Virus record (IMG/VR): IMGVR_UViG_3300034095_001474
Span: 96,001-160,000 of that record
Source of the DNA: a virus
Lineage: Duplodnaviria; Caudoviricetes
DNA length: 64,000 nucleotides
Strand: one strand, 5' to 3'
Below, in pieces: positions 10,243 through 64,000 of the stretch; the stretch's first letter is position 1; each line of letters begins with the position of its first letter. The position numbers were made by a program, and so were the translations under genes. The notes under the pieces are model-generated. The model saw only the letters and a program-made list of their open reading frames with translations, had not been told where the DNA came from and did no database searches.

Positions 10243-10302
10243 AGAATGGCATGTTGATTTTCAAATCCAAATTGAAGCTTTTTAATTTGCTGCAACCATT
10301 CT
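10243..10302 (-). ncRNA. CAGCAA-motif stem RNA (copy A) with an anticodon-like hairpin
   Basis: AGAATGG/CCATTCT stem, TTGCAGCAA, inner TTCAA-TTTGGAT-TTGAA. Confidence 0.5.
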
Positions 10303-20010: not shown

Positions 20011-20709
20011 TTATTTAAGATTAATTACTATTCCATTCTTAACTTGCTCGATGGATTGGATTACTTTATTTTTAGCCATATCGTTAGCAGCAAGTTTGCC
20101 TTCGATTTCTTGCAATTTAGGTCCATATTTACCATCAATTGCTTGAAGTTTTGTTTCACGGTCTTGGATTTGTGTTTTAAGAGCCTCCATTTGTTGTCTC
20201 ATCAAATCCAATTCACCTACCAATGATTGATTCTCGTTGGTTTTTAAATCAATCGTTTCTTGTTTCTTTGCATTACCTTTAGCGACATACTCATCGTATA
20301 CCTTTCCAATTTCAGCAATATAAAAGTTTGATTGTTCTACCAACTTATCTTTGGTAATAGTTTTGTCCATACCAGAACCCATCATAAATGCCATTTGGTA
20401 AATCTGTGGGTTGTCAGCACCAGCATTCATTACTGCTTGGAAAAACTCATAGAAATCATATCCAGATTGATTCAGCGAATCAAATCCTTTTTCATAAACT
20501 TCTAGAGCATTGTTCAAATGTTCTTGAGATACACCTACTGGTGCGTATGTTGGTGTTGGACTTGGAGTTGGTGTAGTTGGAAAACTAAACGAACTTGGTT
20601 GACTTGTTTCCGCTGTTGGAAACTTAGTCGTGTTACTTGGTGTTTGCTCAACTGTTGGTACTACTGCACTTTCTTCAGTATCTGTTACAAACCATGATTT
20701 AAAACTCAT
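20011..20709 (-). CDS. Coiled-coil protein with a P/T/S-rich linker
   Basis: ORF track; TACCTTTG promoter upstream. Confidence 0.7.
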   Translation of the reverse strand: MSFKSWFVTDTEESAVVPTVEQTPSNTTKFPTAETSQPSSFSFPTTPTPSPTPTYAPVGVSQEHLNNALEVYEKGFDSLNQSGYDFYEFFQAVMNAGADNPQIYQMAFMMGSGMDKTITKDKLVEQSNFYIAEIGKVYDEYVAKGNAKKQETIDLKTNENQSLVGELDLMRQQMEALKTQIQDRETKLQAIDGKYGPKLQEIEGKLAANDMAKNKVIQSIEQVKNGIVINLK

Positions 20710-20808
20710 TTTTCTTTTAATTTAATTGTTAATAATAAACTTTTAACAAAGGTACAAAACTTATTTCGATAAAACAAATATATTCGTAAATATTTTTAAA
20801 TTTTTTTG

Positions 20809-20879
20809 AAATTCATACTGGGCTCGAACCAGTGTCTGATGGCTTATCGCCCTCCGTGGTGCCACTCCACTAATGAATC
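20809..20879 (-). tRNA. Degenerate tRNA-like gene (Ile GAT-like, aberrant anticodon loop)
   Basis: Good acceptor, D and T arms; loop reads GGC-GATAA-GCC, no U33. Confidence 0.45.
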
Positions 20880-20976
20880 AACTATCTCCTTTTGCTCGGC
20901 AAAGCTCCATTTGATAGACGGATTATACGATATCAACTAGATTGCCGTCCAGTATCATTTGTACTCCCCAATTTTG

Positions 20977-21055
20977 TTGCGATTTGAGGAATTGAACCTC
21001 ACGGGGGTATATCTACCAATTCGTCTCATGAAAACGACCCTACACCATTATCGCA
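20977..21055 (-). ncRNA. tRNA-like RNA with a CAT anticodon hairpin placed before the D-loop-like sequence
   Basis: TGCGAT/ATCGCA stem, TCGTT-TT CAT GA-GACGA, AATTGGTAG, T arm TGAGG-TTCAATT-CCTCA. Confidence 0.45.
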
Positions 21056-21061
21056 ATTTTG

Positions 21062-21219
21062 TTCCGATGGAAGGACTCGAACCTTCATTCTCTGGTAAAG
21101 CCACCAGCGATGTATTCCTTTCTACGTTTGTTAAACCATCAGCTTCGTATTGTACACTACTAGGCTTGAAAACCAAACATTCTTTTATACCAAAAGGCAA
21201 CCAATTCATCTTCATCGGG
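21062..21219 (-). ncRNA. 158-nt tRNA-like RNA (acceptor stem + T arm, large interior)
   Basis: CCGATG/CATCGG and GAAGG-TTCGAGT-CCTTC. Confidence 0.45.
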
Positions 21220-21292
21220 TGAAGTTTATAAGGGCCGAGAGATTTACCTCCAGACTTCCACCACTTTGTTTTACTAAACAAAGAAAATAAGT

Positions 21293-21419
21293 AAAAGAGA
21301 AGCTTTGGGTCTTTCGGGGTTTCTGATTGAATGCAATGAGTAAGCTCTACCTACTATAAACCCTTTTTCGGTAATTAATACACTCTACCTTTCAATTACA
21401 GCTTAACTACTTCTCTTTA
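21293..21419 (-). ncRNA. Possible structured RNA
   Basis: AAAGAGAAG/CTTCTCTTT closing stem in a non-coding gap. Confidence 0.25.
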
Positions 21420-21421
21420 TG

Positions 21422-21528
21422 TACAGAATAAAGGATTCGAACCTTTGAGTCCCCGTGTATAGGTATCATACATACCACATTCCCAGACTTTATGTATGCT
21501 CAACCTTAAGCCACTCGGTCAATTCCAT
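21422..21528 (-). ncRNA. Class-II tRNA-like RNA with an 18-nt anticodon loop
   Basis: D arm ACC-GAGTGGCTTAA-GGT, CATACAT/ATGTATG stem, T arm AAAGG-TTCGAAT-CCTTT. Confidence 0.45.
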
Positions 21529-21615
21529 ATTTGAGGCTGAGAAGACCTCTGTGTTGTTATAAAAGAAATGTTTAACATTTCTACGTTCCTTTCTCAATGG
21601 AACAACACAATATTT

Positions 21616-21756
21616 GAGCATCAAGATTGACTTTTTTGTGCTAGCCAGTTACACCACACGCCCACACCTCTGTTAGGACATGCTGGGATTCGAACCCAGA
21701 CCCTTTGTTTTACAGACAATTTTGGTTTATTTGCTGAAACAATCTTTTGTATGCTC
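21616..21756 (-). ncRNA. CAGCAA-motif RNA (copy B) enclosing a circularly permuted tRNA (GTA anticodon hairpin)
   Basis: AAGATTG/CAATCTT carrier stem; order anticodon arm, T arm, closed acceptor CATGTCC/GGGCGTG, D arm. Confidence 0.75.
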
Positions 21757-21783
21757 TGTTTAGGTCAGAGGAACCTTCAATGT

Positions 21784-21920
21784 GGGGACAAGATTAACTT
21801 TTTTTCATACGTGCTCTACCACTGAGCTACCGACCTCTGCGAGACCAGGTGGGATTCGAACCCACGACCACGGCATTAACAAGGCTTGAATTTTTGGTTG
21901 CTGAAATAATCTTTTTACCC
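21784..21920 (-). ncRNA. CAGCAA-motif RNA (copy C) enclosing a circularly permuted tRNA (GTT-derived)
   Basis: AAGATTA/TAATCTT carrier stem; T arm GTGGG-TTCGAAT-CCCAC, acceptor CTGGTCT/AGGTCGG, D arm GCTC-AGTGGTA-GAGC. Confidence 0.78.
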
Positions 21921-21965
21921 TTGCAATATTCTACGCAGTTCCCCACGTAGAGTATTGTTTAACAA

Positions 21966-22601
21966 TTACTTGTTAGATGGTGTCACGTTAATTGACCCAA
22001 CTGAACCAGCTTTAGCTCTTTCGATACCAGCAGCTCTTTCAGCATCTAACTGTAAGTACAATTTAGTTACTTGTTCTTCTAAGAACTTGTTTTGAGTAGC
22101 TAATGTACCAATTTTTGCAGCATTTTCAGCAGCGACAGCTTTGTTCTCAGAGTGGATTAATTTAATCTCATTCTCATACTGAGTTTTCAAAGTTGCAACG
22201 ATAGTTGCTACTTCTTTTTTCACTGTAGCTTCAGTGTTAGTTCTTGCAGTGTCTAAATCAGAACGTAAAGTTGTTAATTCAGATGTTGCGATAGACGTGT
22301 AACCGTTAGATGTTAACCACTGAGTTACAACTCTTTCTTGGTTAGCTCTGAATGATAAGTCTAACTCAACGTCAGCTTGTCTACGTTTTTCAGCGTACTC
22401 AACTTCTAATGCAGAAATTGCTTCTTCTTTATTAGCTACTAACATAGTTAATTGCTCTGATTGGTCCGATAAAGTAGAAACTGTTGCAGTTGCTGCTTTT
22501 AATTCGTTTACAGCTTTAGCGATTTGTGCTGCTGCTTGTCCTAAAACTACTTCTGTGTTTGCAGAAGCTTTTCTTGCTGGTGTACTTTTTGGTGTTGCCA
22601 T
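21966..22601 (-). CDS. Ala-rich coiled-coil protein, directly upstream of the permuted tRNA-like RNAs
   Basis: 211-aa ORF with phage-like codon usage. Confidence 0.75.
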   Translation of the reverse strand: MATPKSTPARKASANTEVVLGQAAAQIAKAVNELKAATATVSTLSDQSEQLTMLVANKEEAISALEVEYAEKRRQADVELDLSFRANQERVVTQWLTSNGYTSIATSELTTLRSDLDTARTNTEATVKKEVATIVATLKTQYENEIKLIHSENKAVAAENAAKIGTLATQNKFLEEQVTKLYLQLDAERAAGIERAKAGSVGSINVTPSNK

Positions 22602-23211: not shown

Positions 23212-23336
23212 TCGGAAGGGAAGGAATCGAACCTCCAAATAGCAGTCCCTAATAGTAGTTTTATGCTGAACATAATCTTTAAACAGATTAACTTTTTTTT
23301 ACATACTGCCGCCTTTACCAATTTGGCCACCTTCCG
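23212..23336 (-). ncRNA. tRNA with the CAGCA module inserted in a 58-nt anticodon loop (copy D)
   Basis: CGGAAGG/CCTTCCG acceptor, GCC/GGC D stem, GCAGT/ACTGC anticodon stem, insert AAAAAAAAG-TTAATCT-GTTTA-AAGATTA-TGTT-CAGCA. Confidence 0.78.
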
Positions 23337-28939: not shown

Positions 28940-29263
28940 ATGGGATATGTTTATTTATTTTTAGAGGTTGATAAAGAAGGTAATGAAGCTTATAAGATTG
29001 GTATTACTAAAAATGAGCCAATCAAACGAGTGAAACAATTGCAAACTGGTAATTCACGCAAATTGACTTACCTTAAATCTTATAAATCAGAAAACTACTT
29101 AAAAGTAGAACGTTTTTTACATAGAAAATATATGATAAAAACTGAAGCTGAAAATGAATGGAGAACTCTTACTGATGAACAAGTTATTTCATTCATTAAA
29201 GATTGTGAGGAAGCTGATGAAAATATCAACTTCCTTTTAAAAAACAATCATTTTTATAAGTGA
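28940..29263 (+). CDS. GIY-YIG/T5orf172-like nuclease
   Basis: GYVY...YKIGITK...RVKQLQTGN...ENEW. Confidence 0.8.
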   Translation: MGYVYLFLEVDKEGNEAYKIGITKNEPIKRVKQLQTGNSRKLTYLKSYKSENYLKVERFLHRKYMIKTEAENEWRTLTDEQVISFIKDCEEADENINFLLKNNHFYK

Positions 29264-30429
29264 TAGAATTCTCTTCTAATCTTAATCAACAACTTGTTAA
29301 CCAATTCTGGGTCAATACCTTTAGGTAAATCAGATTCATCAAAAATCCTATCCATCTCTTTGATTTCAGCTTCTGCTGTATCAATAAGTGAATCTAAATC
29401 AATTTCGCCTCTACGAATAGACAATAGATATTCTCTATCTGGTCGTCTTACAATGATTCCTTCACCACGTCCAATTTCTTGTGACATTCTAATAAGTCTC
29501 ATACAATGCATCATATTCTTACCATCAATTTGTTGTCCATGTTTAACCGTATCAACGTATCTTGCAGTGTTTCTATTCTCAACCCATTCCATATATTCTT
29601 TATAGTCCTTGCAGTGAGCTGTATACCCATCTTTGTTGAACATGATGTTACAGATAGGTGTTTCACCCTTTGGAATACTTGATAAACGTAATTGATTGGA
29701 TTCAGCAGCATTATCAGAACCGCCAACCTTAGCAAGAGCCTTATAACCAAATCCCATCGCTTTACCTTGTGATTTTAACTCATTCTTCATAAATTCTCTT
29801 TGTTCTTCACTAAAAAACTCACCAAAACAAGCAGCCGCAATATTATCGTAAAAAACAGCATATAAATCTTTTGCGTGTGGAACATTGGTAATACCTAAGA
29901 ATTTTTCTTCATAACCCAGACCTTCACACCATTTTTTCCATGGAACTGATTGTTCACCTTGAATAACATAACAGAAATCCAACACATCTTTACGAGTAAC
30001 TGAACCTTGTTCTATGTTTTGTTTCTTGTTAAGACCTCTAGCTTTAGATATTTGTTGTACAGCATACCCACCAAATGAGTTCTTACACCCTTTGGTGATA
30101 AAATCAGCCTTGTGGTCCAATACATATTGAAACAATGGATGTTTTGTAATGATACAATCTTCTGGTGTGTTTAATAACTCCAATACTGTCGGATTTGAGC
30201 TTCCCATTAGTTCTAAGAACCTTTTAAGTTCCCAACCAGTATAATCCTTGTTTACGTTTAATTGTTCAACGTAACCAGTCCCTAAGATGTAATCTTGTGG
30301 TAAGATATATACAAACTTCTTATCAACATCAGATGTTGGAGTTTGTGTTCCATATGCTTGTGACCCAATGATACATTCAAATAGGATAAGCCCGTTTTGT
30401 TCTAAGTATTCGTGTGTAATCTTTTCCAT
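29254..30429 (-). CDS. RlaP-like (Pol-beta) nucleotidyltransferase
   Basis: IGSQAYGT.TPTSDVD, NPTVLELL, DGKNMMHCMRL, LLSIRRG. Confidence 0.8.
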   Translation of the reverse strand: MEKITHEYLEQNGLILFECIIGSQAYGTQTPTSDVDKKFVYILPQDYILGTGYVEQLNVNKDYTGWELKRFLELMGSSNPTVLELLNTPEDCIITKHPLFQYVLDHKADFITKGCKNSFGGYAVQQISKARGLNKKQNIEQGSVTRKDVLDFCYVIQGEQSVPWKKWCEGLGYEEKFLGITNVPHAKDLYAVFYDNIAAACFGEFFSEEQREFMKNELKSQGKAMGFGYKALAKVGGSDNAAESNQLRLSSIPKGETPICNIMFNKDGYTAHCKDYKEYMEWVENRNTARYVDTVKHGQQIDGKNMMHCMRLIRMSQEIGRGEGIIVRRPDREYLLSIRRGEIDLDSLIDTAEAEIKEMDRIFDESDLPKGIDPELVNKLLIKIRREFYHL

Positions 30430-32522: not shown

Positions 32523-33236
32523 TTAAGCTAATCTAAGTGGTCTTAAATAATCTCTAAGAAATGCGTTGACTGGACCACCAATCTTTTCTTCCCAATGTTT
32601 ATAGTTAGAAGCATTCTTTTCTTCCAATTGAGACAAAGCTTTCTCAGATGGTTTATGTCTACTATATGGTATTGTTTCTGGAACAAAGTCTGGATACAAC
32701 GTTCTATTGAATACCCTTTCATCAACCAAGAACACAAAAGCTGTCAATTGGTCACCCAAATCTGGTTCATGGAACCCTTGCAGATATACACCAACTTCAT
32801 GCATCGTATTCATATGAGTATTCAATGTGCCTAATCTTTCTGGGTTGTTGTTGGTAGTACCACCATTAAGAATGATAAAAGTTTTATCTTTGTCAGCCCA
32901 TTTTTTATAGATTGCGTTATGTGGATTAATATCTTCAACAGTTCTACCATAATCAACAACAGCATGTCCAAATTGGATACCTTGTTGAATTGGAGACATA
33001 TTGTAAGGTACAAGACCATACATTCTATATTCCAAATACATTTCAGTTTTACGTGGCATTGAATTAGTTTTTACACGACATAACTCAATACGTCTGTAGA
33101 ATTCTTGTACATCAATTTTCTCTTCATAATAAGAGTCAGTATAAAACGCCCAATCAGTTTCCCATGATGACATATCGATTATTCTCATGTTGGCATCTAA
33201 ACACCAATCATATCCAGTTTTAAGTATTTTTTCCAT
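32523..33236 (-). CDS. PTH2-like peptidyl-tRNA hydrolase domain protein
   Basis: QQGIQFGHA, TFIILNGG, FHEPDLGDQLTA. Confidence 0.6.
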   Translation of the reverse strand: MEKILKTGYDWCLDANMRIIDMSSWETDWAFYTDSYYEEKIDVQEFYRRIELCRVKTNSMPRKTEMYLEYRMYGLVPYNMSPIQQGIQFGHAVVDYGRTVEDINPHNAIYKKWADKDKTFIILNGGTTNNNPERLGTLNTHMNTMHEVGVYLQGFHEPDLGDQLTAFVFLVDERVFNRTLYPDFVPETIPYSRHKPSEKALSQLEEKNASNYKHWEEKIGGPVNAFLRDYLRPLRLA

Positions 33237-34543
33237 TAGTTTCCTATTTCAATTAAGTGTGATATAGTACATTGTTCTGCTCTATATATAATATATTCGT
33301 TATTTCTTAAATCAGCACCACCTTTAGCAAACACACTGTTATAACCTTCATTGTCCATTACTTTTTGTGATAATTTATAACAGCTAGAATCGTGATGCAG
33401 TATTTCTTTTTCTTTCCCTAAATGAACATCATACAATGCCAAATAAGCTTTATTGTCACCACCATTAGCCCAATAAGAACCTCTCAATGATGAGTAACCA
33501 ATTGATTTCTGTGCTTTATCAGCAAAATAGATACCATCACCAAACATTGAACCAGTATGTACTGCACCAGAAGGTCTGATAAGCAATCCACTTTGCATAA
33601 TGTTAAACCAGTTCTCATTTCTGGAACCATGCCAGTAAAGTCTTTTCTTTTTAACGTCAGCTTTCTCCAAGTTTTTATCAAATTTAACTTGTGTTTTGTT
33701 ATTTCTAACTTTGAACACTTTTTTGATTTGATTAACATTTGAACCCATCAATTTTTTAATAAGTGCTAACATTTCAGTATCGTTTTCAACTTCAACTGTT
33801 AATCCCATTTGGTCAAGGATAGTTACATCTTCAACAACTTCTTCTTCACCTTTGGCTTCAGCTTCAGCAGCTTTTTTAGCAGCATCTCTTTGTTGTTTAA
33901 TCAACTCAACTTGTCCAGCCATCGTATCCAATGCTGATTGTTCATTATCAATCAACCTTTGAGCACTAGTCAAACTACCATCATCCTCAATACCACTAAA
34001 CAAGTAGTCTTTAACATTATCCATTCTTCTTGGGATAATAGTATATAATTTCAATAACATATCATTGATATGTTTGATATCAACACCTATTTGTATCAAC
34101 CCACTAATATTGGTAATAACCTCTTGTGCAGCTCTTACTTGTTGTTCAGATACAGCTTCTTGAGTTACCTTATAGTTTCTTTGGATTGATTTGTTAGCAA
34201 ATGACATTAAATCATCAATCAATTTCTTAACAATATCATCTTTTATGTTCTCAACCTTGTTATCCAATGGTTTTGATTCATCAATAACTGGTTCAGCTAG
34301 TAAATCAGTAACATCAGTATAACCTTTTGTTTTGGATAATTTCTGTTTCAACACACTATCCCACTTGCTGCTAGGTTTATATTCTTCAACCAAAGACTTA
34401 CCAACACGTCCATATTCACATTTGATACGTCCATCTGTCAATTCCTCCATAATATAAACCTTGTTACTGTTTCCAGTACTGCCATTATCCACTGATACGT
34501 GGATAAGTTTGGCATATCTTAAACCATTTTCCTTTGTTATCAT
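33236..34543 (-). CDS. Poly(ADP-ribose) polymerase-like protein (WGR + regulatory + catalytic domains)
   Basis: NKVYIM...YGRVG; YTIIPR; WHGSR...GSMFGDGIYFAD...KSIGY...NEYIIY (H-Y-E triad). Confidence 0.9.
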   Translation of the reverse strand: MITKENGLRYAKLIHVSVDNGSTGNSNKVYIMEELTDGRIKCEYGRVGKSLVEEYKPSSKWDSVLKQKLSKTKGYTDVTDLLAEPVIDESKPLDNKVENIKDDIVKKLIDDLMSFANKSIQRNYKVTQEAVSEQQVRAAQEVITNISGLIQIGVDIKHINDMLLKLYTIIPRRMDNVKDYLFSGIEDDGSLTSAQRLIDNEQSALDTMAGQVELIKQQRDAAKKAAEAEAKGEEEVVEDVTILDQMGLTVEVENDTEMLALIKKLMGSNVNQIKKVFKVRNNKTQVKFDKNLEKADVKKKRLYWHGSRNENWFNIMQSGLLIRPSGAVHTGSMFGDGIYFADKAQKSIGYSSLRGSYWANGGDNKAYLALYDVHLGKEKEILHHDSSCYKLSQKVMDNEGYNSVFAKGGADLRNNEYIIYRAEQCTISHLIEIGN

Positions 34544-35089: not shown

Positions 35090-35273
35090 CTTTGAATAGA
35101 TTTGGGTTATTCAACACAAAATTAAAGAAAACTGTTTGTAAACGTGTATCTACCATGAAACCATTCACGTATACAACACCATTTAGTATCTCAATTTCTT
35201 GACCAGCTGGTAATGACATATCTTTGCCAACTTCAGCAGCTTTTAACAGCTTATAAACTCCATTTTTTAACAT
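35070..35273 (-). CDS. Hypothetical protein
   Basis: ORF track. Confidence 0.55.
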   Translation of the reverse strand: MLKNGVYKLLKAAEVGKDMSLPAGQEIEILNGVVYVNGFMVDTRLQTVFFNFVLNNPNLFKDDTRAW

Positions 35274-36331
35274 ACTATAGTCAATTTAAAGAACATCTCT
35301 CTTACTTTTGTAGAGATGTATTTATTTACTTCTTTTGGTTCTACTTGGTTCTCAACCATAGTATCCATTTCTTCTTTGATAACGTCATTTACAACCCATC
35401 TAATAACATCACCCATCTTTTTAACATCGATTGGTTCTTGGTTAGGAAAAACGTTTTCCAATGCTTGATTAAAACGACTTTCTGTTACAGCGTAATCAAC
35501 AAACTTTTGAATACCATTTAATTTTTCAACATTAACATTCGCAAGTGTTTTAACTTTAGAACTAGAATGTTTTTCACCTTTCACCTTGAACCTATGTGTG
35601 TTACCTTTGAAATCAGCAGTCCAAACAATACCTTCACCAATTCCAGAAAAACCAAATGCTTTAGCAACTGGACATTCTTCTTCAACTTTGATAGTCAAAT
35701 TAGATAAGTCATTTTGTACCAATTGTGGCATATTGAAATCAATATCGATTGAATACGTTGGGTAGTCTTCGATGTTGTAAATATTATCCTCTGGACTAGA
35801 CAAGTAATGAGAAGGAATCCAATATGCTGGTTTAGCTTTCAATTCTTCCTCACTAGATGTATGTGGTGTTACCTTAACACCGAAGATAAAGAAAGATTTA
35901 GGTAAATTGGTAATACCAACACCTTTTTGAATGTTTCCACCACACCATTCACCATAAATAGTAACAGTATTATGTCTTACATCAAATAAATTTAATGAAT
36001 CGATTTGATTTGCAAATTTTCTAAATGCATGTTTCTTTGATTCAACAAAAAATGCAAATCCAGCGTTGTCTTTCTCTACTGTAATAATGTTCTCACGTGA
36101 TTGAGCCCAAAATTCGCTAGAATTTTCATCATAACCATAATCAAAAGATACACCAGCGTTTGTACCATGTAACTTTACTGTACCTTTGAACGTGATAACT
36201 GGTTTTGGTAAAGTTGGGTCATAAATTGCATCACCATTCTCATCCAAACCAACAAAATTGAAATGTCTATTGACATTAGATACAACTGTTCTAAATTGTT
36301 CAATAGACGGAAATTTAATCATTTTTTTCAT
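35267..36331 (-). CDS. RNA ligase, Rnl2-like
   Basis: KLHGTN (I), YGEWCG (III), GEGIV (IV), FKVK (V). Confidence 0.85.
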   Translation of the reverse strand: MKKMIKFPSIEQFRTVVSNVNRHFNFVGLDENGDAIYDPTLPKPVITFKGTVKLHGTNAGVSFDYGYDENSSEFWAQSRENIITVEKDNAGFAFFVESKKHAFRKFANQIDSLNLFDVRHNTVTIYGEWCGGNIQKGVGITNLPKSFFIFGVKVTPHTSSEEELKAKPAYWIPSHYLSSPEDNIYNIEDYPTYSIDIDFNMPQLVQNDLSNLTIKVEEECPVAKAFGFSGIGEGIVWTADFKGNTHRFKVKGEKHSSSKVKTLANVNVEKLNGIQKFVDYAVTESRFNQALENVFPNQEPIDVKKMGDVIRWVVNDVIKEEMDTMVENQVEPKEVNKYISTKVREMFFKLTIVC

Positions 36332-39631: not shown

Positions 39632-40756
39632 TTACAACATTTTATATAATAATTTATCATCGTATTCAAACATAAAGTCTTCAACGCTATTTATTTTGTA
39701 TTGAGCCAATCCGAAATACAATCCAGTGAATTGTTTTACTTCATATTTATCACATACTTCAAATACAGCAGCTGCATACTTTTTTTGTTCTTCTTTTGTG
39801 ATGTTTTTTGGTCTAAGCAATTGTAACTCAACCCAAATAACGTTCAACTTACCAACCAACTCATCGTATCCTTCTTTAAGACGATATAGTTCTTCTGTTC
39901 TTTCTGGGAAAGTAGCAGCAAACTCTTCTATCTCGTTGGTTTTTACGATTGTTAATATGTTGTGTTCAGCAGTTTTACCTTTTAAGTGGTGAACTGCAAC
40001 ATAAGCTGGGTTTTTCACCTTCACACGATTGTCGTTACCATCACGTACTACATATCCTTCTTCAGACCATGGCATGTTTTCAAATGTTTTCAACAAGTGA
40101 CCAACATTTGATGCGTTGATATCAAAAGACTTTACCAATGGTATACCTATTGACACAGCAGCCATTTCTAAGTCTTTTCCAGAAAACTCAACTAGTGTTT
40201 CTCTGTCTCTCACAGTCAATAGTGTTGCTGATGATTCACCATGTGGTTTTACCACTATGTTGTATGGTGTAGTCAACTCAAATACGTATATAAGGTCTTT
40301 GTTCAGTAAACATTCATTGAATGTGTATTTGTTATTTACAGTTTCCCAAAACAAGTCATTAAATGTTGTTCCGTTTTTGTTGTTCACTTCACCTTCACCT
40401 TCAGCAGTACCAGTAGTAGCTGCAAACCATTTTTCTTCATACCAATCCCAATAGACTTGTATCATAGTACCATCCAATTTTTCAAGTACATGTGCAGTAT
40501 TCCAATCTATCTTTGCAGCGTTTCCTTCTTCAGAATTGAAGAATTTACGGAATGCCAACGACATTACGTTCCAAGTATTTTTTTCAAGGATAATTCCACG
40601 ACAATCTTGCATTTCTGGCAAGGCCATAAGTGTTGGTGACACCAATTGGTCATACTTAAAAAGTATTTTACCATCATACTCTCTAGTTTTTAAACTAAAA
40701 GCTTTGATTGTTTTTTCTAATCCGTGTTTTATTAAGTAATTTTGTATCGCTAACAT
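39632..40756 (-). CDS. RNA ligase, T4 Rnl1-like
   Basis: RKFFN, EKLDGT, FEL...NIVV, EGYVV, RVKVKNPAY. Confidence 0.88.
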   Translation of the reverse strand: MLAIQNYLIKHGLEKTIKAFSLKTREYDGKILFKYDQLVSPTLMALPEMQDCRGIILEKNTWNVMSLAFRKFFNSEEGNAAKIDWNTAHVLEKLDGTMIQVYWDWYEEKWFAATTGTAEGEGEVNNKNGTTFNDLFWETVNNKYTFNECLLNKDLIYVFELTTPYNIVVKPHGESSATLLTVRDRETLVEFSGKDLEMAAVSIGIPLVKSFDINASNVGHLLKTFENMPWSEEGYVVRDGNDNRVKVKNPAYVAVHHLKGKTAEHNILTIVKTNEIEEFAATFPERTEELYRLKEGYDELVGKLNVIWVELQLLRPKNITKEEQKKYAAAVFEVCDKYEVKQFTGLYFGLAQYKINSVEDFMFEYDDKLLYKML

Positions 40757-40816
40757 AATATAATTTTTTAATGTTAGACAAAAGTACAAAATAAAAATGA
40801 AATAACAAAATAAAAC

Positions 40817-42334: not shown

Positions 42335-42553
42335 TTATTCACTATCATATTTACTTATATTTAGATTTCCATCAATAAAAACTTCACTTAGATTCAATAT
42401 TTCTTTTGCGTGAAATACTTCAACACCTTCCAATGGAAATGCTTCGCCAGTATAATAAAAGAATCTTATCTTATACAATGGACCTTCAACCCAAAGTATT
42501 TCACTTTGACAAAGACCATAGTGTTTTAATTGTAATTTTACTTCTTGTTTCAT
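42335..42553 (-). CDS. Hypothetical protein
   Basis: ORF track. Confidence 0.5.
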   Translation of the reverse strand: MKQEVKLQLKHYGLCQSEILWVEGPLYKIRFFYYTGEAFPLEGVEVFHAKEILNLSEVFIDGNLNISKYDSE

Positions 42554-43455
42554 TATTTATTAGTATTTGTAATCTCAGTAACAACACCTTTTATCATAAA
42601 TGATTTAATGTCTTGCCACTTTGTTATTTCATTGCTCATTACTGGCTTACCACCTTCTGGGTTTATCGCAATGGTTATGTGTGGTATTTCATTTTTGGAA
42701 TTAAACCCTTCAACTTGTACTGCCAAAGCCATATCAGATAACCCTAATTTGGTCACAGTAAGTACCACTTCTTTACCCAATTCAGATTTATCTTTCAACT
42801 CACCCAAATTTATTGTCATATGATGTGCAAATACTTTCCAATCTTGTGGTATCCATATACCCAACTTATCCATCAACGTACCTTTGGATTGTCCATCCAA
42901 CAATACACAAGAGTACAACACATCAGATTTTTTGTACATATCTTTAGATGCAAGTATTTTCTTTATGGTTAATGGACCAACAGATTTATGTGATTGTATC
43001 ATTTTTTGTATTTCAACCAATGGAACACCATGTGTATTTGATTCAGCTAATTGTTCAGCAGACAAACCTCTAGTACCCACATCAAATATTTGTATGTTGT
43101 TATCATCTAACCCCATTTCCAATGCTGCAACAACGTATGCTTTAGCACCATTAGCCTTTATGTTGGTGTTATCTATAACAACTGGCGTAATACCATCTTT
43201 AATAGATTTGATTGCGTTAGATAAGTTCTTAGAGTGCATTCTATTGAATGCTTTAGAATCGCCAGAAGTTTTTATCTTAGCAAAGAAACCTCTGTAATCA
43301 CCAGTCGCTGTTATAAGGTCATCAGTTGAATGGATAATACCGTCCAGCACAATAGACTTAGCCATTGTAGACTTTCCAGCACCTGGAATACCACGCATCA
43401 CAAACAATTCTTGTGTTGGTCTAGTTACATCGATATTTAATATATTCTTTTTCAT
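42553..43455 (-). CDS. Polynucleotide-kinase-like P-loop fused to a 2H cyclic phosphodiesterase (RNA end healing)
   Basis: RGIPGAGKST, IDNTN, THGVP; HHMTI and PHITI. Confidence 0.82.
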   Translation of the reverse strand: MKKNILNIDVTRPTQELFVMRGIPGAGKSTMAKSIVLDGIIHSTDDLITATGDYRGFFAKIKTSGDSKAFNRMHSKNLSNAIKSIKDGITPVVIDNTNIKANGAKAYVVAALEMGLDDNNIQIFDVGTRGLSAEQLAESNTHGVPLVEIQKMIQSHKSVGPLTIKKILASKDMYKKSDVLYSCVLLDGQSKGTLMDKLGIWIPQDWKVFAHHMTINLGELKDKSELGKEVVLTVTKLGLSDMALAVQVEGFNSKNEIPHITIAINPEGGKPVMSNEITKWQDIKSFMIKGVVTEITNTNK

Positions 43456-43492: not shown

Positions 43493-44425
43493 TTATTTAA
43501 TTATTTTAATAATACTAGGGTTATATATTACATAGTGTGTTGTGTCTCTATATTCATCACCAACCATAATACCATCAATACCTAACTTAACGCAATTCCT
43601 AACAAATCCAACACCATCATACCTATAAAAATCAATCCAAACTTGCAATAAAACATCTTTGTCATTATCATTATATTGAAAAGCAGATTGTAAAAATTTA
43701 ACTAACCCTTTAGGGTATGGGTAATCATAATTAACTACATCATCTTTCCAATCCTCAGCCATCATAACCAACTTTTTTACAATTGCTGGTGTAATGGTTA
43801 ATTTACCAACTTTATCACCATACATTATCCTAGGAGTTAACTCAACATTAAAAACTCTACCTTTTTCTCCAGCATATCCGTATGCTTCTTGTTCTGATGA
43901 TGTAAAATAAACACCAGGACCATTTTGGTCAGTTGCTTCTTTACCACCTACAAACTCATCGCTAAAACCAGAAAAATCATTAGGACTACCGTGGTATGCT
44001 ATTAAATTTAAATTTTTGTATTTGTCTTCACCTAATAAAGATTCTTTAAGCATCTTCTTAATTATTTTTTTTGTTTCGTTTTCTCCCATCATAAATTTTG
44101 AATTAGGGAATAGTACTATTTCACCAAACTTACCATCTGGATATTTTGTTATAATAGCATCATATCCCTTGCTCATTAGTATGTTAGTTAGTTTTTCACC
44201 TTTAGCTTTATATTGCTTAGCTAAATCTCTTTTATATTCTATTTGAGTATCATCAGTGATATCTATATATAAAGGGTTATTTATTATAGCTTTACCTTCA
44301 ATCCAACCGTCTGGTACAAAATTAGTATTTTGCCTAACATATGTACCTTTTGGTTCAACATCTTGACCAAACCTAGAACCCAATTTAGGTGCTGGTTCTG
44401 TATTTTTAATTATATTTAATTCCAT
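43493..44425 (-). CDS. ADP-ribosyltransferase-like (polyvalent-protein ART type) protein
   Basis: AYHGS...GPGVYFTS...AYGY; internal IKKMLKES. Confidence 0.55.
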   Translation of the reverse strand: MELNIIKNTEPAPKLGSRFGQDVEPKGTYVRQNTNFVPDGWIEGKAIINNPLYIDITDDTQIEYKRDLAKQYKAKGEKLTNILMSKGYDAIITKYPDGKFGEIVLFPNSKFMMGENETKKIIKKMLKESLLGEDKYKNLNLIAYHGSPNDFSGFSDEFVGGKEATDQNGPGVYFTSSEQEAYGYAGEKGRVFNVELTPRIMYGDKVGKLTITPAIVKKLVMMAEDWKDDVVNYDYPYPKGLVKFLQSAFQYNDNDKDVLLQVWIDFYRYDGVGFVRNCVKLGIDGIMVGDEYRDTTHYVIYNPSIIKIIK

Positions 44426-44441
44426 ACTAATAAATATTGTT

Positions 44442-45833
44442 TTATTCGTTAAAGATTTTTTTAACTGAACCATCTTCATATATCAAAATCAACACCCCTT
44501 TGGTGTTCAAATCAACATCAGTACCATATAAGTTAACGATACGAACAACAATACGTATTTTTTTAGAGTTATCGACAGAAATTATATCATGATTTTTAAA
44601 TTTACCATCATAATCAGTTTGTTTTAATCTATAATAAGTAACGTTATCGTTTAAATCGTAATCATCATACTCATAATAATTTTGTGTGTTAGAATTACCA
44701 GCACCATTTATTGTTGCTATATTATAGAAGATAACACCATCTTGTGTCTTTTCGATATTGAAATAATCATTGTTGATTTCACTAGCTGTTGACCAAGTTA
44801 AATGGTTGTATCTTTCATTAACCTCTGCTTCAAAATATAATAATTCAATTGGTAACGCAACTGGGTCGGCTAATCCAATTTTAATGTTAGCTCTTAAACC
44901 ACCTCTAACTCCATCAGCAGTTGGATATGAAGCATCTAAAACTTTATAAGCAACTGCATTTGTTTTTGGTGTATAATAAAACCACGGTTCATCACTTGAC
45001 CAACTATTATTACGATTTTCCCACTTAATAAGTAAATTATTTATATTGTTCCAAGGGAAAGGAGTTTGCAACACAATTTCAACCCACCCAACAGTCCAAT
45101 TTACAGTCCCATCATACACTAATGTATAATTTGAAGATACGTAATTTGTTTGAGCATTCTCTTTTACAGTAGAAGACGGAAATGATGATAATGTGGTATG
45201 ACCCATATAAATCTTTTGGTTTGTTGCCGTATAAGGAATTGATGTTGCTGGGTCAACTTGAAAACGGATTTTTGTAATATTACCAACAGTGTTAATTTCT
45301 GACTGGAGATAAATCATATCAGTCCAACCATGTTTATAATAATGATTTGATGGAACATTATAATCACTAACTTCTCCACCACCAATACTTACAATAGTAC
45401 CTCCACTAGAATTACCTTTTTGGTATTTGATACGTGCATTTATTCCATTAAGAGTAGCACACGTATTACTAGATGTCCATCTAGTAAGTAACACCGAATA
45501 AGTTCCAGAAGTTGAACAATACCAAGTTATTTCAGATTGTGTGTTATTATAATCATCACTCTCTGCTAATAAAGTACCACCAGTACCAGTTGAATATAAT
45601 CTAAGGTAGGTATCAACAGTTGTTTCACCTACTGTTGAAAATGTGTATTCACTACCAGCAGTGGCGGCAAAATTAAATGCTCTCCTACCAGAACTATAGG
45701 TTGTACTATATTGTATAGTAGTAGTTGGTGTTATTGCAACATTTGTATTTGCAGTATTGCAATATTGAGATAAGGAGAAATTACTCGATAAAACTAATAT
45801 AACTAGACTTAATAATATATTTAACTTTTTCAT
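44442..45833 (-). CDS. Bacteroidota T9SS-substrate-like secreted protein
   Basis: Signal peptide, DTYLRLY...ESDD domain, LPIELLYF..LTWSTASEINNDYFNIEK, short CTD. Confidence 0.75.
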   Translation of the reverse strand: MKKLNILLSLVILVLSSNFSLSQYCNTANTNVAITPTTTIQYSTTYSSGRRAFNFAATAGSEYTFSTVGETTVDTYLRLYSTGTGGTLLAESDDYNNTQSEITWYCSTSGTYSVLLTRWTSSNTCATLNGINARIKYQKGNSSGGTIVSIGGGEVSDYNVPSNHYYKHGWTDMIYLQSEINTVGNITKIRFQVDPATSIPYTATNQKIYMGHTTLSSFPSSTVKENAQTNYVSSNYTLVYDGTVNWTVGWVEIVLQTPFPWNNINNLLIKWENRNNSWSSDEPWFYYTPKTNAVAYKVLDASYPTADGVRGGLRANIKIGLADPVALPIELLYFEAEVNERYNHLTWSTASEINNDYFNIEKTQDGVIFYNIATINGAGNSNTQNYYEYDDYDLNDNVTYYRLKQTDYDGKFKNHDIISVDNSKKIRIVVRIVNLYGTDVDLNTKGVLILIYEDGSVKKIFNE

Positions 45834-47208: not shown

Positions 47209-47285
47209 TGGAGGACTAGGTGGGACTCGAACCCACGACTTTCGCATTAACAGTGCGGAGCTCTAACCAACTGAGCTACCAATCC
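47209..47285 (-). tRNA. tRNA-Asn(GTT), encoded CCA
   Basis: CGCA-CT GTT AA-TGCG. Confidence 0.88.
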
Positions 47286-56343: not shown

Positions 56344-56423
56344 AGAATAGTTTTGGGAATTGAACCCTTTCATCTAAATTTATGCAAATTTTAATTTAAC
56401 CTTAGTTTTGCTGAAACTATCCT
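56344..56423 (-). ncRNA. CAGCAA-motif RNA (copy F) with a T-arm-like hairpin
   Basis: AGGATAG/CTATTCT stem, TTTCAGCAA, GGG-TTCAATT-CCC. Confidence 0.55.
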
Positions 56424-56430
56424 TTCTTTG

Positions 56431-56588: not shown

Positions 56589-56659
56589 TTGGCCAAAATC
56601 TGTTTTTTTTTTCTTTTAAGTATAGATAGTTTTAATTGCTGAAAAGATTTTTTTGCCAA
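56589..56659 (-). ncRNA. CAGCAA-motif RNA (copy G), minimal
   Basis: TTGGC/GCCAA and AAATCT/AGATTT stems, TTTCAGCAA, 3' A-run. Confidence 0.55.
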
Positions 56660-57924: not shown

Positions 57925-58303
57925 TGGTGGAGTATTGGGGAGTCGAACCCCAGTGTTGAATATTCTTCAATGCTTTCTACATGTTTATCTAGTTTCTAAT
58001 CCTAGCAAAGTTGTGCTACGTTATTTATACCGATGGAGGTGCAGCGACCATCGTTGCTAATTTTTACAACTAAGAAATGTTGGTTCTTGGTGGATTACCA
58101 CTATCGGTGGACTTTACCACCATTTGCAATATTAGGCTACTGCAAGCTCTCCGTTAGAAACGAATGTCGCTTCATCTAGGAAATTTTCTGATACGATAAA
58201 ATCGTTGTCAATTCAAATTTTAATAGACAGATTTAAGTGCTTCCAATCTAGCACTACATGCTTACTACCTACGACTATATTCAGTCAATACCATTAATAC
58301 CCC
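57925..58303 (-). ncRNA. ssrA: tmRNA
   Basis: GGGGTAT/ATACTCC acceptor with G3-U70, 5' TTGAC, T arm GGGG-TTCGACT-CCCC, encoded ACCA, tag frame 58209-58132 ending LAVA-stop. Confidence 0.92.
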
Positions 58304-62928: not shown

Positions 62929-63041
62929 TCGTCTTTCTTTAAATATAATGTTATGTATTAAATAATAAACAATAGTATCGATTTTTTTTCATAGTGTAAA
63001 CACTAAAAACAAAAAAACCCCACAATTGTGAGGCTTTTTAA

Positions 63042-63216
63042 TGACTTGTTACAAGATACGGGGGCATTTACTTCAAACCCAGTTAAGAAGTTTTCCAATT
63101 TTATAAAAATAGAGGTTTTGGGAACCTACGTGGAATCTTTCGATTCACTTTCCATGTATATAATTGTTTTTTTTAAGTTTTTTGGTTGCAGAATGCATCT
63201 TTTAAAAAACAAGTCA
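63042..63216 (-). ncRNA. CTGCAA-variant motif RNA (copy I), directly downstream of the TROVE-like gene
   Basis: TGACTTGT/ACAAGTCA and AAGATGC/GTATCTT stems, TTCTGCAACCAAAAAA. Confidence 0.55.
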
Positions 63217-63262: not shown

Positions 63263-64000
63263 TTAAATAGTTACTGGTGCGTAACGCTCAGAGTCAATAA
63301 CACTCAACATCATAGATATTGGAGTCATGTCTTTACCAGCTAATAAATTAGTAAGCAATGCTGGAGAGAAACCAGATACCAACGCAGTACCTTCTTTATC
63401 AAATTGTACTGGTTTGTTATTATCTCCTCTTGATTGGATGTTCCAATATACTAACTTAGGCATTGTGTACCCAGCTTGAGTATAAAGAGACTCAACCATA
63501 TCTTGAGCAGTCCACCCACGAACACTACCACAATTGAATTCCATGTCTGACAACATAAGAATCATTGTTGGCATTTCTTCTGGTGCAACATTTGACTCAA
63601 CAGCTTTGTTTAAAAGCATTCTAAACGCTTTTTCAACATTAGTATCATATCCAACTGGCCCTTGAATTTGTCTGTATCTCTCAGACAAACTACCTTTAAG
63701 GTATTGTAATGTTGGGTTAGATGTAAACGTAATGAATGCATCTTTGAAAGGACCTTCGTTTCTTTCTGAAATGTATAACCCCAAAGAGATTGCTACATCC
63801 ATACAAGTTACGTTAGCGTTGTTCCCAGCTGGAGTACCCATTGACCCAGAAACATCCACCATTGGTAAAAGTCTCTCGTTGTTACCTTCCATGTAGTTAG
63901 GCAACGCATCCCATTGTACGTTAGCACCTTTGGTGTTACCAGTTTTCATGTTTTTAACGATGTCGTATGGATATACTGCACCAGCATTTATTTTAGCCTC
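63263..64000 (-). CDS. DUF2828 / TROVE-vWA (Ro60-like) protein, C-terminal part; runs off the window end
   Basis: KINAGAVYPYDI, QWDAL, MIDAS DVSGSM, AISLGLYISE, FITF, TN, LSDMEF, YWNI, SGFS. Confidence 0.8.
   Translation of the reverse strand, partial: EAKINAGAVYPYDIVKNMKTGNTKGANVQWDALPNYMEGNNERLLPMVDVSGSMGTPAGNNANVTCMDVAISLGLYISERNEGPFKDAFITFTSNPTLQYLKGSLSERYRQIQGPVGYDTNVEKAFRMLLNKAVESNVAPEEMPTMILMLSDMEFNCGSVRGWTAQDMVESLYTQAGYTMPKLVYWNIQSRGDNNKPVQFDKEGTALVSGFSPALLTNLLAGKDMTPISMMLSVIDSERYAPVTI

Follow-up and report, generated by a model that had tools for sequence, protein, structure and literature searches.

Tandem permuted tRNA-like RNAs of a large lake phage are probably YrlA-like mimics with a distinct, DUF2828-linked handle

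Background

When the parts of a tRNA lie in permuted order close to genes for RNA ligases, do they encode a tRNA that has to be cut and rejoined, or a stable RNA that resembles a tRNA and is never converted into one? This question is raised by a locus at positions 21616-21920 of a 64,000-nucleotide (nt) stretch of DNA (hereafter the window; positions 96,001 to 160,000 of IMG/VR record IMGVR_UViG_3300034095_001474), the source of which is a large lake-water phage of the Caudoviricetes. An original prediction, made from the letters of the window, saw here two tandem circularly permuted tRNAs and proposed that they are either unchargeable tRNA mimics acting as nuclease decoys or permuted precursor tRNAs (pre-tRNAs) matured by circularisation. 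We call the two elements modules B and C, and the structure formed by the paired ends of each its handle. A permuted tRNA-mimic layout as such is already known from YrlA, a Y RNA-like tRNA mimic of bacteria and phages that is bound by Ro60/Rsr (Chen et al. 2014, PMC4201824). Our analysis suggests that B and C are probably tRNA mimics of the YrlA kind that dock on a Ro60-like protein; their type of handle differs from that of YrlA, and the anticodon arm is retained.

Results and discussion

Two complete permuted tRNA-like bodies

The RNA strand is the minus strand, on which C (21920-21784) and B (21756-21616) agree with the interval originally assigned to the pair. The permuted order is confirmed in both: an anticodon-like hairpin, variable region, T arm and closed acceptor, with the acceptor-closing loop (5 nt in C, 12 nt in B) followed by the acceptor 5' strand, two nt beginning with U8 and a complete D arm (Table 1). 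What had been taken for one carrier stem common to B and C proved wrong, as each module has separate closing stems of its own. Compared with the phage's own tRNA-Asn (47209-47285), the 3' half of C is identical at 33 of 39 positions, and the anticodon of C is GUU, within the 7-nt loop UUGUUAA. The CG at 42-43 pairs with C27 G28 (21810-21811), which come after the D arm; hence the body of C has a normal anticodon stem of 5 base pairs (bp) in which the 5' strand is broken between 28 and 29, and this is where the handle branches off.

As they stand, neither B nor C is called by ARAGORN or by the tRNA covariance model. Once the handle was removed and the halves were swapped back in silico, ARAGORN called a tRNA in 12 of 12 tested family members, window C being read as Asn-GUU and window B as Tyr-GUA. 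The Rfam model of YrlA (RF02553), in which the parts have the same order, matched C end to end (41.4 bits, E 2.7e-7) and B partially (17.5 bits), both below its gathering threshold of 69 bits; the homologue in L081 (L numbers are our labels for the sequences compared) reached 46 bits. The two-piece tmRNA model (RF04321 and related) gave a partial match of 14.6 bits, and no ribozyme or intron family matched within 20600-22400 at E up to 10. Minimum-free-energy folding was no better than shuffles for B, C and the 566-nt region (z 0.10, -0.19 and -1.16, respectively), so that single-sequence folding is uninformative here.

Conservation and covariation of the modules

A blastn search of the region against 50,697 phage records returned one trivial 58-nt T-arm hit, and an exact 51-nt pattern had no match in IMG/VR. 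A degenerate pattern built from the shared flanks found homologues on IMG/VR contigs as long as 362 kilobases (kb); after duplicate removal these comprised nine C-type copies, six B-type copies and twelve normal-order tRNAs with the same element. Homologues are present in at least 12 big-phage contigs. The C-B tandem occurs in five distinct contigs besides the window, and an insert-bearing tRNA plus a 211-residue open reading frame (ORF) lie upstream of it, with the order kept, in the window and three of these five.

Among the homologues the acceptor sequence is wholly replaced with 7 bp retained: CUGGUCU/AGGUCGG in the window and ACUGUCC/GGGCGGU, UCGGCUC/GGGUCGG and UCUGAGA/UCUUAGG elsewhere. 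A 7-bp acceptor register fits 15 of 15 copies, and all seven positions are paired in 12 of them. Unaided, RNAalifold found the two closing stems in a plain MAFFT alignment along with the T, acceptor and D arms; of 26 pairs, 10 are compensatory. Addition of the anticodon pairs for the nine C-type copies brings the compensatory pairs to 13 of 31, with pairing in 95% of cells. The C-type covariation score is 0.391, as against 0.172 for shuffles (0/500 reach the observed score) and 0.04-0.07 for slid-partner controls. As the fold persists in independent contigs despite complete replacement of the acceptor sequence, it is not due to chance in B and C.

Retention of the anticodon arm, originally noted as a departure from YrlA, holds for C, in which all three hairpin pairs 29-31/39-41 covary (AGC/GCU, AGG/CCU and GCU/AGC) and the loop displays GUU in 7 of 9 copies and CUU or UUU in the other two. 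In B-type copies a hairpin of 3-4 bp is kept and its loop varies, with GUA in the window, GGA, AGA or UUG in others, and 9 nt in L144. The tertiary pair is G15:C48 in most C-type copies and A15:U48 in L205 and L255, and A15:U48 is possible in four of the six B-type copies, window B among them. The inner closing stem of C is invariant across the nine C-type copies, and the outer one covaries (GGG/CCC, UAGACA/UGUCUA, UAGGUA/UACCUA and AAAGGA/UCCUUU; 4 of 4 counted pairs compensatory), as does the B outer stem (GAG-NNN/NNN-CUC) among the six B-type copies. C has A-U and B has G-C as the last inner-arm pair, a compensatory change between the two types. C-type copies differ in the base at the discriminator position, where C, U, A and G all occur.

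Another set of covarying positions connects B to a small hairpin just 5' of it, which sits about 90 nt before B's acceptor-closing loop. The loop of this hairpin complements both CAGAGG in the B acceptor loop and CAGAG at the start of the B outer stem. Across six loci the variable sixth letter of the UCCUCUN loop covaries with the N of NAGAGG in the B acceptor loop (G with C, A with U, U with A), and the hairpin stem covaries as well (AGGU/ACCU in the window, GGAG/CUCC in L081). This contact could be a kissing interaction or an alternative pairing by which the outer stem is masked; it could also be a processing signal that is repeated. The hairpin at 21762-21776 together with 21664-21675 (minus strand) is also seen in L081, L198, L137, L144 and L114, and a segment CCU-UAA-NAGAG is present twice.

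The handle and its other carriers

The handle common to these RNAs comprises a covarying outer stem, a small internal loop, the inner stem AAGAUUR/YAAUCUU, the invariant box UUUCAGCAA and an A-run on the return strand. It is by no means confined to permuted modules: closed by a loop of 4-8 nt, it occurs within normal-order tRNAs, one of which is encoded in the window (23212-23336). This gene scores 47.5 bits with the Rfam tRNA model, is a circular permutant of the B/C layout, and in L081, L198 and L203 shows synteny with C and B. Other normal-order carriers are a tRNA-Asp(GUC)-like form with G73 and the handle at 29/30, and a normal-order relative of the 5' half of C with the handle at 28/29; in all, the insertion points range from 28/29 to 31/32. 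With respect to the gene at 23212-23336, C1-G72 and A73 resemble the phage's tRNA-Pro genes. Its anticodon register is ambiguous, two registers giving UAG or AGG, and the homologues disagree; in these homologues NGG-type triplets adjoin the 3' strand of the stem.

The window also has handle RNAs without a tRNA body, each with its own complementary arms, at 56594-56650, ~56345-56425 and 10243-10302 (minus strand), whose boxes read UUUCAGCAA or UUGCAGCAA. The one at ~56345-56425 bears a T-arm-like hairpin. A variant handle (box UUCUGCAA) follows the terminator of the window's DUF2828 gene. The handle-like RNA at ~63040-63195 (minus strand), directly after the DUF2828 gene and a terminator-like hairpin, has the arms AAGAUGC/GUAUCUU and the variant box AUUCUGCAACCAAAAA, and its 5' part is closely like that of module C.

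A DUF2828 protein as candidate partner

The gene found in association with the handle encodes a DUF2828 protein, the window copy of which was identified by tblastn with the DUF2828 proteins of relatives (72% identity, E 2e-118). PF11443 (DUF2828) is present in four of five module-carrying relatives as against 0 of 14 control genomes, and in the fifth relative, which gave no hit, the contig stops before the expected place of the gene. DUF2828 relatives are encoded by 492 IMG/VR contigs. In 36 of 80 viral DUF2828 loci a same-strand stem-plus-CAGCA[A/U] RNA starts 0-500 nt past the stop codon, the density of handles behind DUF2828 genes being 1.43 per kb vs ~0.1 per kb in every other 500-nt bin. 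The handle RNAs of the window have a stem that joins their ends, a CAGCAA-containing motif immediately downstream of the 5' arm and an A-run leading up to the 3' arm, and the same genome carries a DUF2828 gene.

Profile comparison aligns DUF2828 with the vWA domain of a phage TROVE protein (hhalign 91%, E 1e-6), the DVSGSM metal site lying within the alignment, and for a low-confidence structure model of DUF2828 the top 12 PDB fold matches are all Ro60/TROVE proteins, over the full length and with E down to 1.4e-6. DUF2828 thus looks Ro60-like and is probably a ring-type relative of Ro60. Canonical Ro60 (TROVE, PF05731) was found in none of the five module-carrying relatives (one of them estimated complete), by hidden Markov model or with a phage TROVE protein, and TROVE was likewise not found among the ~30 scanned of the window's 81 ORFs of at least 100 residues. 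The window's two unannotated proteins, 488 and 472 residues long, were considered as Ro60 and set aside, since their sequences are not Ro60-like. The Ro60 neighbourhoods of crAss001 and a Vibrio phage were also considered as a source of relatives; crAss001 has insert-bearing tRNA-shaped RNAs with another motif (UUACUUCAA) and not this handle. Downstream of the TROVE gene of this Bacteroides phage (L263 4420-5324) there is a tRNA-shaped RNA with an 82-nt anticodon-arm insert (46.6 bits, tRNA model), and the motif, (G/C)UUACUUCAA, has four occurrences in a 900-nt gap.

Relationship to known RNA families

The modules share several features with YrlA, namely ends that form a stem, protein-binding in YrlA and putatively so here, around a tRNA mimic composed of T arm, closed acceptor and D arm; a G15:C48 or A15:U48 pair; the possibility of a tandem pair (yrlB and yrlA); and association with RNA-repair genes. 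They differ in their sub-threshold scores with the YrlA model and in the absence of an adjoining TROVE gene, the candidate partner being DUF2828, 42 kb off. Moreover, the handle is of the stem-plus-CAGCAA type, and the modules retain a complete anticodon hairpin, which makes a fourth arm. A regular-expression search of B, C and the insert-bearing tRNA for the Ro60-binding motif GNCGAAN0-1G (PMC4201824) gave no match.

The handle itself finds its closest parallel in a eukaryotic family. Class I RNAs have a short covarying stem that joins their ends, a conserved motif beside the 5' arm and a variable interior; they are 42-65 nt long, eukaryotic and reported absent outside Dictyostelia, and the RRM protein Rnp1A is known to bind them (Kjellin et al. 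2021, PMC7919456). The phage handle resembles the Rfam model of these RNAs (RF01414) in the ~11-nt motif beside the 5' arm (Rfam consensus CUUACAGCAAUUAAAAC), in the A-rich run before the 3' arm, which is seen in nearly all copies (short in the B copy of L144), and in ends that read AAG...CUG(U). The box UUUCAGCAA has the same position and nearly the same sequence in the RF01414 motif and in the RNAs behind DUF2828 genes. The comparison was scored on the cargo-free sibling at 56594-56650 alone, which has a full-length match to the Dictyostelium family, below threshold (25.6 bits, E 0.011; threshold 41.5), and shares with it CAGCAAUUAAAAC, the A-run and the terminal UG. B and C give no hit, the 56-nt model being unable to span their 110-nt insert; indeed, an interior consisting of a 110-nt tRNA mimic, and occurrence in a phage, are what set the modules apart from Class I RNAs. 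Two-piece tmRNAs are comparable in having a tRNA-like domain and permuted coding order in bacteria, and differ in that B and C are without an mRNA-like part or tag reading frame; the phage also has a standard tmRNA.

Mimics or precursors of tRNAs?

In Cyanidioschyzon merolae and Thermofilum pendens the termini of permuted tRNA genes form a bulge-helix-bulge (BHB) that is cut by EndA/Sen, and functional tRNAs result. B and C resemble these genes in having the 3' half upstream of the 5' half, an acceptor closed by an intervening loop, termini that pair, and a terminal motif that is also found inside normal-order tRNA genes. Were they true permuted pre-tRNAs, their paired ends would be a splicing signal: an endonuclease or ribozyme would cut the handle and a phage ligase would join 28 to 29 into a circle, whereupon RNase P and a 3' nuclease would open the acceptor loop and CCA would be added. 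Several observations are in line with this, including the full tRNAs obtained from all 12 tested modules by swapping in silico, the presence of the same element at 28/29 to 31/32 in normal-order tRNAs, and the fact that its removal leaves canonical anticodon arms with matching identity marks (Asp-GUC/G73; C1-G72/A73/NGG). The acceptor always has the 7 bp that RNase P needs (PMC4201824). Likewise, the two RNA ligases originally reported near the modules are indeed encoded in the window (one Rnl1-like, one Rnl2-like), together with a kinase-phosphoesterase and a CCA enzyme. We nevertheless consider this route unlikely. The handle also closes RNAs that are not tRNAs and clusters behind DUF2828 genes, which an intron signal would not explain. 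In bacteria, tRNAs with the Tyr and Ser anticodons seen in B-type copies require a long variable arm; B, which has none, would probably not make a valid tRNA-Tyr or tRNA-Ser. The discriminator-position base varies, as noted above, and AsnRS needs G73. The acceptor loop of B is conserved and covaries with the upstream hairpin loop, and so seems to be used rather than discarded. No BHB (3-nt bulge, 4-bp helix, 3-nt bulge) was seen next to the junction by inspection, and no gene of the EndA family (PF01974) was found in the five relatives by a search that was positive in four archaeal controls; nor, as mentioned, did any ribozyme family match within 20600-22400. Finally, the anticodons are redundant with canonical tRNA genes of the window (three for Asn, one for Tyr-GUA). 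Maturation by circularisation is thus disfavoured, and B and C would appear to escape splicing. Contigs from four lake metatranscriptome RNA runs contain no joint that skips the handle and none leading from the D-arm side back to the anticodon side. A 155-nt contig from an RNA library runs colinearly over B (21649-21748), and most other matches are ordinary tRNAs of other organisms. As contigs cannot show ends and the libraries may contain DNA, this result says nothing on circles. A single tRNA spanning the two modules, with the 5' half of C, the 3' half of B and a long intron, was rejected on the ground that the acceptor strands do not pair. Slightly more improbable still, in our estimate, is that B, C and the gene at 23212-23336 are genuine tRNA genes in which the handle is a new protein-guided intron or junction signal, cut by the DUF2828 ring or some other nuclease and rejoined by a ligase; if true, these would be the first permuted tRNA genes and the first case of non-group-I tRNA splicing in the bacterial and phage world.

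Opening of the acceptor in the manner of YrlA, without any rejoining, is likelier than maturation into tRNAs, though we still rate it as doubtful. Here RNase P and a 3' nuclease would open the 7-bp acceptor of the RNA in the handle ribonucleoprotein and CCA would be added, giving a tRNA mimic in two pieces that the handle and the remaining arms would keep together and that might even be charged. Mycobacterium smegmatis has the sole YrlA whose acceptor is 7 bp long, and in vivo this RNA is cleaved by RNase P and receives CCA (PMC4201824); the fit of all 15 copies to a 7-bp register, along with the CCA enzyme of the phage, is compatible with such processing. The closing loop of C, however, is just 5 nt long, that of B is conserved and apparently pairs elsewhere, and the discriminator is not conserved. 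We attach very little weight to the notion that B and C are non-functional debris, such as tandem-tRNA junctions or decayed halves that happen to resemble YrlA. It is true that the YrlA model rings at ordinary tandem-tRNA junctions in related huge phages and in 13 of 14 control genomes, but no half-tRNAs flank the modules, the acceptor strands pair within modules and not between them, and both modules are conserved with compensatory changes in at least 12 contigs, with invariant flanks. YrlA hits in the huge phages LR745206.1 and LR756502.1 were examined as possible relatives and proved to be ordinary tandem-tRNA junctions. Such false positives (L003, L004, L006, L007 and L009) combine the T arm of one tRNA with the D arm of the next; LR745206.1 encodes a true TROVE/vWA protein (L010 919-2370).

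Taken together, the complete permuted tRNA look-alikes and the pairing of their ends into a DUF2828-linked handle make it most likely that B and C are tRNA-shaped Y-type RNAs and not tRNA genes that are cut and rejoined; of the two hypotheses of the original prediction, the unchargeable tRNA mimic fits best, its decoy role being putative. A number of points weigh against this interpretation. The DUF2828 model has a mean predicted local distance difference test score (pLDDT) of 59 and a template-modelling score (TM) of 0.47, so that the designation Ro60-like rests on the ranking of the matches and the vWA alignment. The window's DUF2828 gene lies 42 kb away from B and C, and the handle-DUF2828 link consists of gene neighbourhood and co-occurrence, from which binding is a reasonable surmise. 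The C-type body is tRNA-perfect, with a 5-bp anticodon stem, a 7-nt loop and an acceptor of exactly 7 bp, and selection for real tRNA activity cannot be dismissed. In the normal-order carriers acceptor and anticodon features agree (C1-G72/A73 with NGG, G73 with GUC), and the phage has the enzymes needed for healing and sealing cut RNA.

A proposed role and its implications

We propose that B and C belong to a family of stable non-coding RNAs ("handle RNAs") in which pairing of the two ends yields a two-part stem, the putative docking site for the phage's DUF2828 ring protein. The body is a full permuted tRNA look-alike, with the T arm stacked on the closed 7-bp acceptor, the D arm and its usual tertiary partners, and the anticodon hairpin, from the stem of which the handle projects as a side branch (from the 5' strand, at 28/29 in C). 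By analogy with Ro60/Y RNA particles, the body might present a tRNA surface to factors that recognise tRNAs. Candidates are host anticodon nucleases, for which it may act as bait, or the phage ligase, kinase-phosphoesterase, RlaP and CCA enzymes, for which it may be an adaptor in the handling of cut tRNAs. Across the family the anticodon loops displayed are of the Asn, Lys, Asp, Glu, Tyr and Gln types, and tRNAs with these anticodons are the usual targets of anticodon nucleases; the displayed types, albeit from a small sample, fit a bait or adaptor role. In this regard, Ro60-type proteins of jumbo phages with a tRNA-like partner have been proposed as RNA-repair platforms (PMC7824862).

In the literature searched we found no account of this handle type, a DUF2828 partner, a retained anticodon arm, or paired permuted and normal-order versions, and none of the literature on DUF2828, judged by title and abstract, is apparently about RNA. 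What the window contributes is the permuted full-tRNA cargo form of the handle RNA along with the covariation evidence. If our interpretation is true, large phages have a second kind of Ro60/Y RNA particle, made of a DUF2828 ring and RNAs with the stem-plus-CAGCAA handle, some of them tRNA-shaped, and a domain of unknown function with hundreds of viral representatives would acquire a definite partner and a function open to testing. A phage RNA family would then be connected with the Class I RNAs, which have been reported from social amoebae and no other organism (PMC7919456), and a new player would join anticodon nucleases and phage tRNA repair in the tRNA-centred conflict between phages and bacteria. 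The locus also carries a caution, in that permuted tRNA order and nearby ligases alone do not indicate tRNA splicing.

Features of the window and the gene neighbourhood

Table 1. Coordinates of the modules, related RNAs and genes in the window
Feature	Coordinates	Strand	Details
Module C, predicted entire RNA (outer stem to outer stem)	21784-21920	-	handle and permuted tRNA-Asn-like body
C outer stem	21918-21920 / in 21784-21787	-	GGG with CCC
C inner handle arm, 5' strand	21907-21913	-	AAGAUUA; pairs with UAAUCUU at 21790-21796
C handle box	21898-21906	-	UUUCAGCAA, immediately 3' of the 5' arm; same in 15/15 permuted copies
C anticodon hairpin and variable region	21866-21885	-	GCC 29-31, loop UUGUUAA, UGC 39-41, CG 42-43, UGGUC 44-48
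C T arm	21849-21865	-	GUGGG-UUCGAAU-CCCAC
C closed acceptor	21830-21848	-	7 bp; 3' strand CUGGUCU, loop CGCAG, 5' strand AGGUCGG
C D arm	21813-21827	-	GCUC-AGUGGUA-GAGC; U8 A9 before it at 21828-21829
C linker into 3' handle arm	21797-21809	-	with A-run (UAUGAAAAAAAGU)
Hairpin just 5' of B	21762-21776	-	AGGU-UCCUCUG-ACCU
Module B, predicted entire RNA	21616-21756	-
B outer stem	21751-21756 / 21616-21621	-	GAGCAU/AUGCUC
B inner arm	21740-21746 / 21623-21629	-	AAGAUUG/CAAUCUU
B handle box	21731-21739	-
B anticodon-like hairpin	21705-21719	-	UUGU-CUGUAAA-ACAA
B T arm	21683-21699	-	CUGGG-UUCGAAU-CCCAG
B closed acceptor	21657-21682	-	7 bp; conserved 12-nt loop UAACAGAGGUGU
B D arm	21638-21654	-
Normal-order tRNA-shaped gene	23212-23336	-	C1-G72, A73; handle = closed hairpin 23264-23290 in anticodon arm
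RlaP	29254-30429		RNA-repair gene
Rnl2-like ligase	35267-36331		RNA-repair gene
Rnl1-like ligase	39632-40789		RNA-repair gene
Kinase-phosphoesterase	42553-43455		RNA-repair gene
CCA enzyme	52437-53552		RNA-repair gene
Standard tmRNA	57925-58303		phage's own
DUF2828 (Ro60-like, helical and vWA), proposed partner	63263-64000	-	C-terminal ~245 residues; gene runs off the window

ARAGORN finds 33 tRNA genes and one tmRNA in the window, every one of them on the minus strand. The closest deposited relatives, as judged from one protein compared, are uncultured phages of ~640 kb. Amid the RNA-repair genes (Table 1) lie genes for PARP-like and ART-PolyVal ADP-ribosyltransferases, at 33236-34543 and 43493-44479 (minus strand). 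The 211-residue ORF (21966-22601, minus strand), which belongs to phrog_9325 (function unknown), is situated between the insert-bearing tRNA and module C; its synteny is kept in L081, and RNA-library contigs of four lake runs cover it. Downstream of B, at 20809-21520 (minus strand), there are several aberrant tRNA-like genes: that at 21422-21519 scores 20.2 bits with the tRNA model and has a 20-nt insert in the anticodon arm plus a long extra arm, and at 20808-20879 there is a tRNA with an odd AUA anticodon loop.

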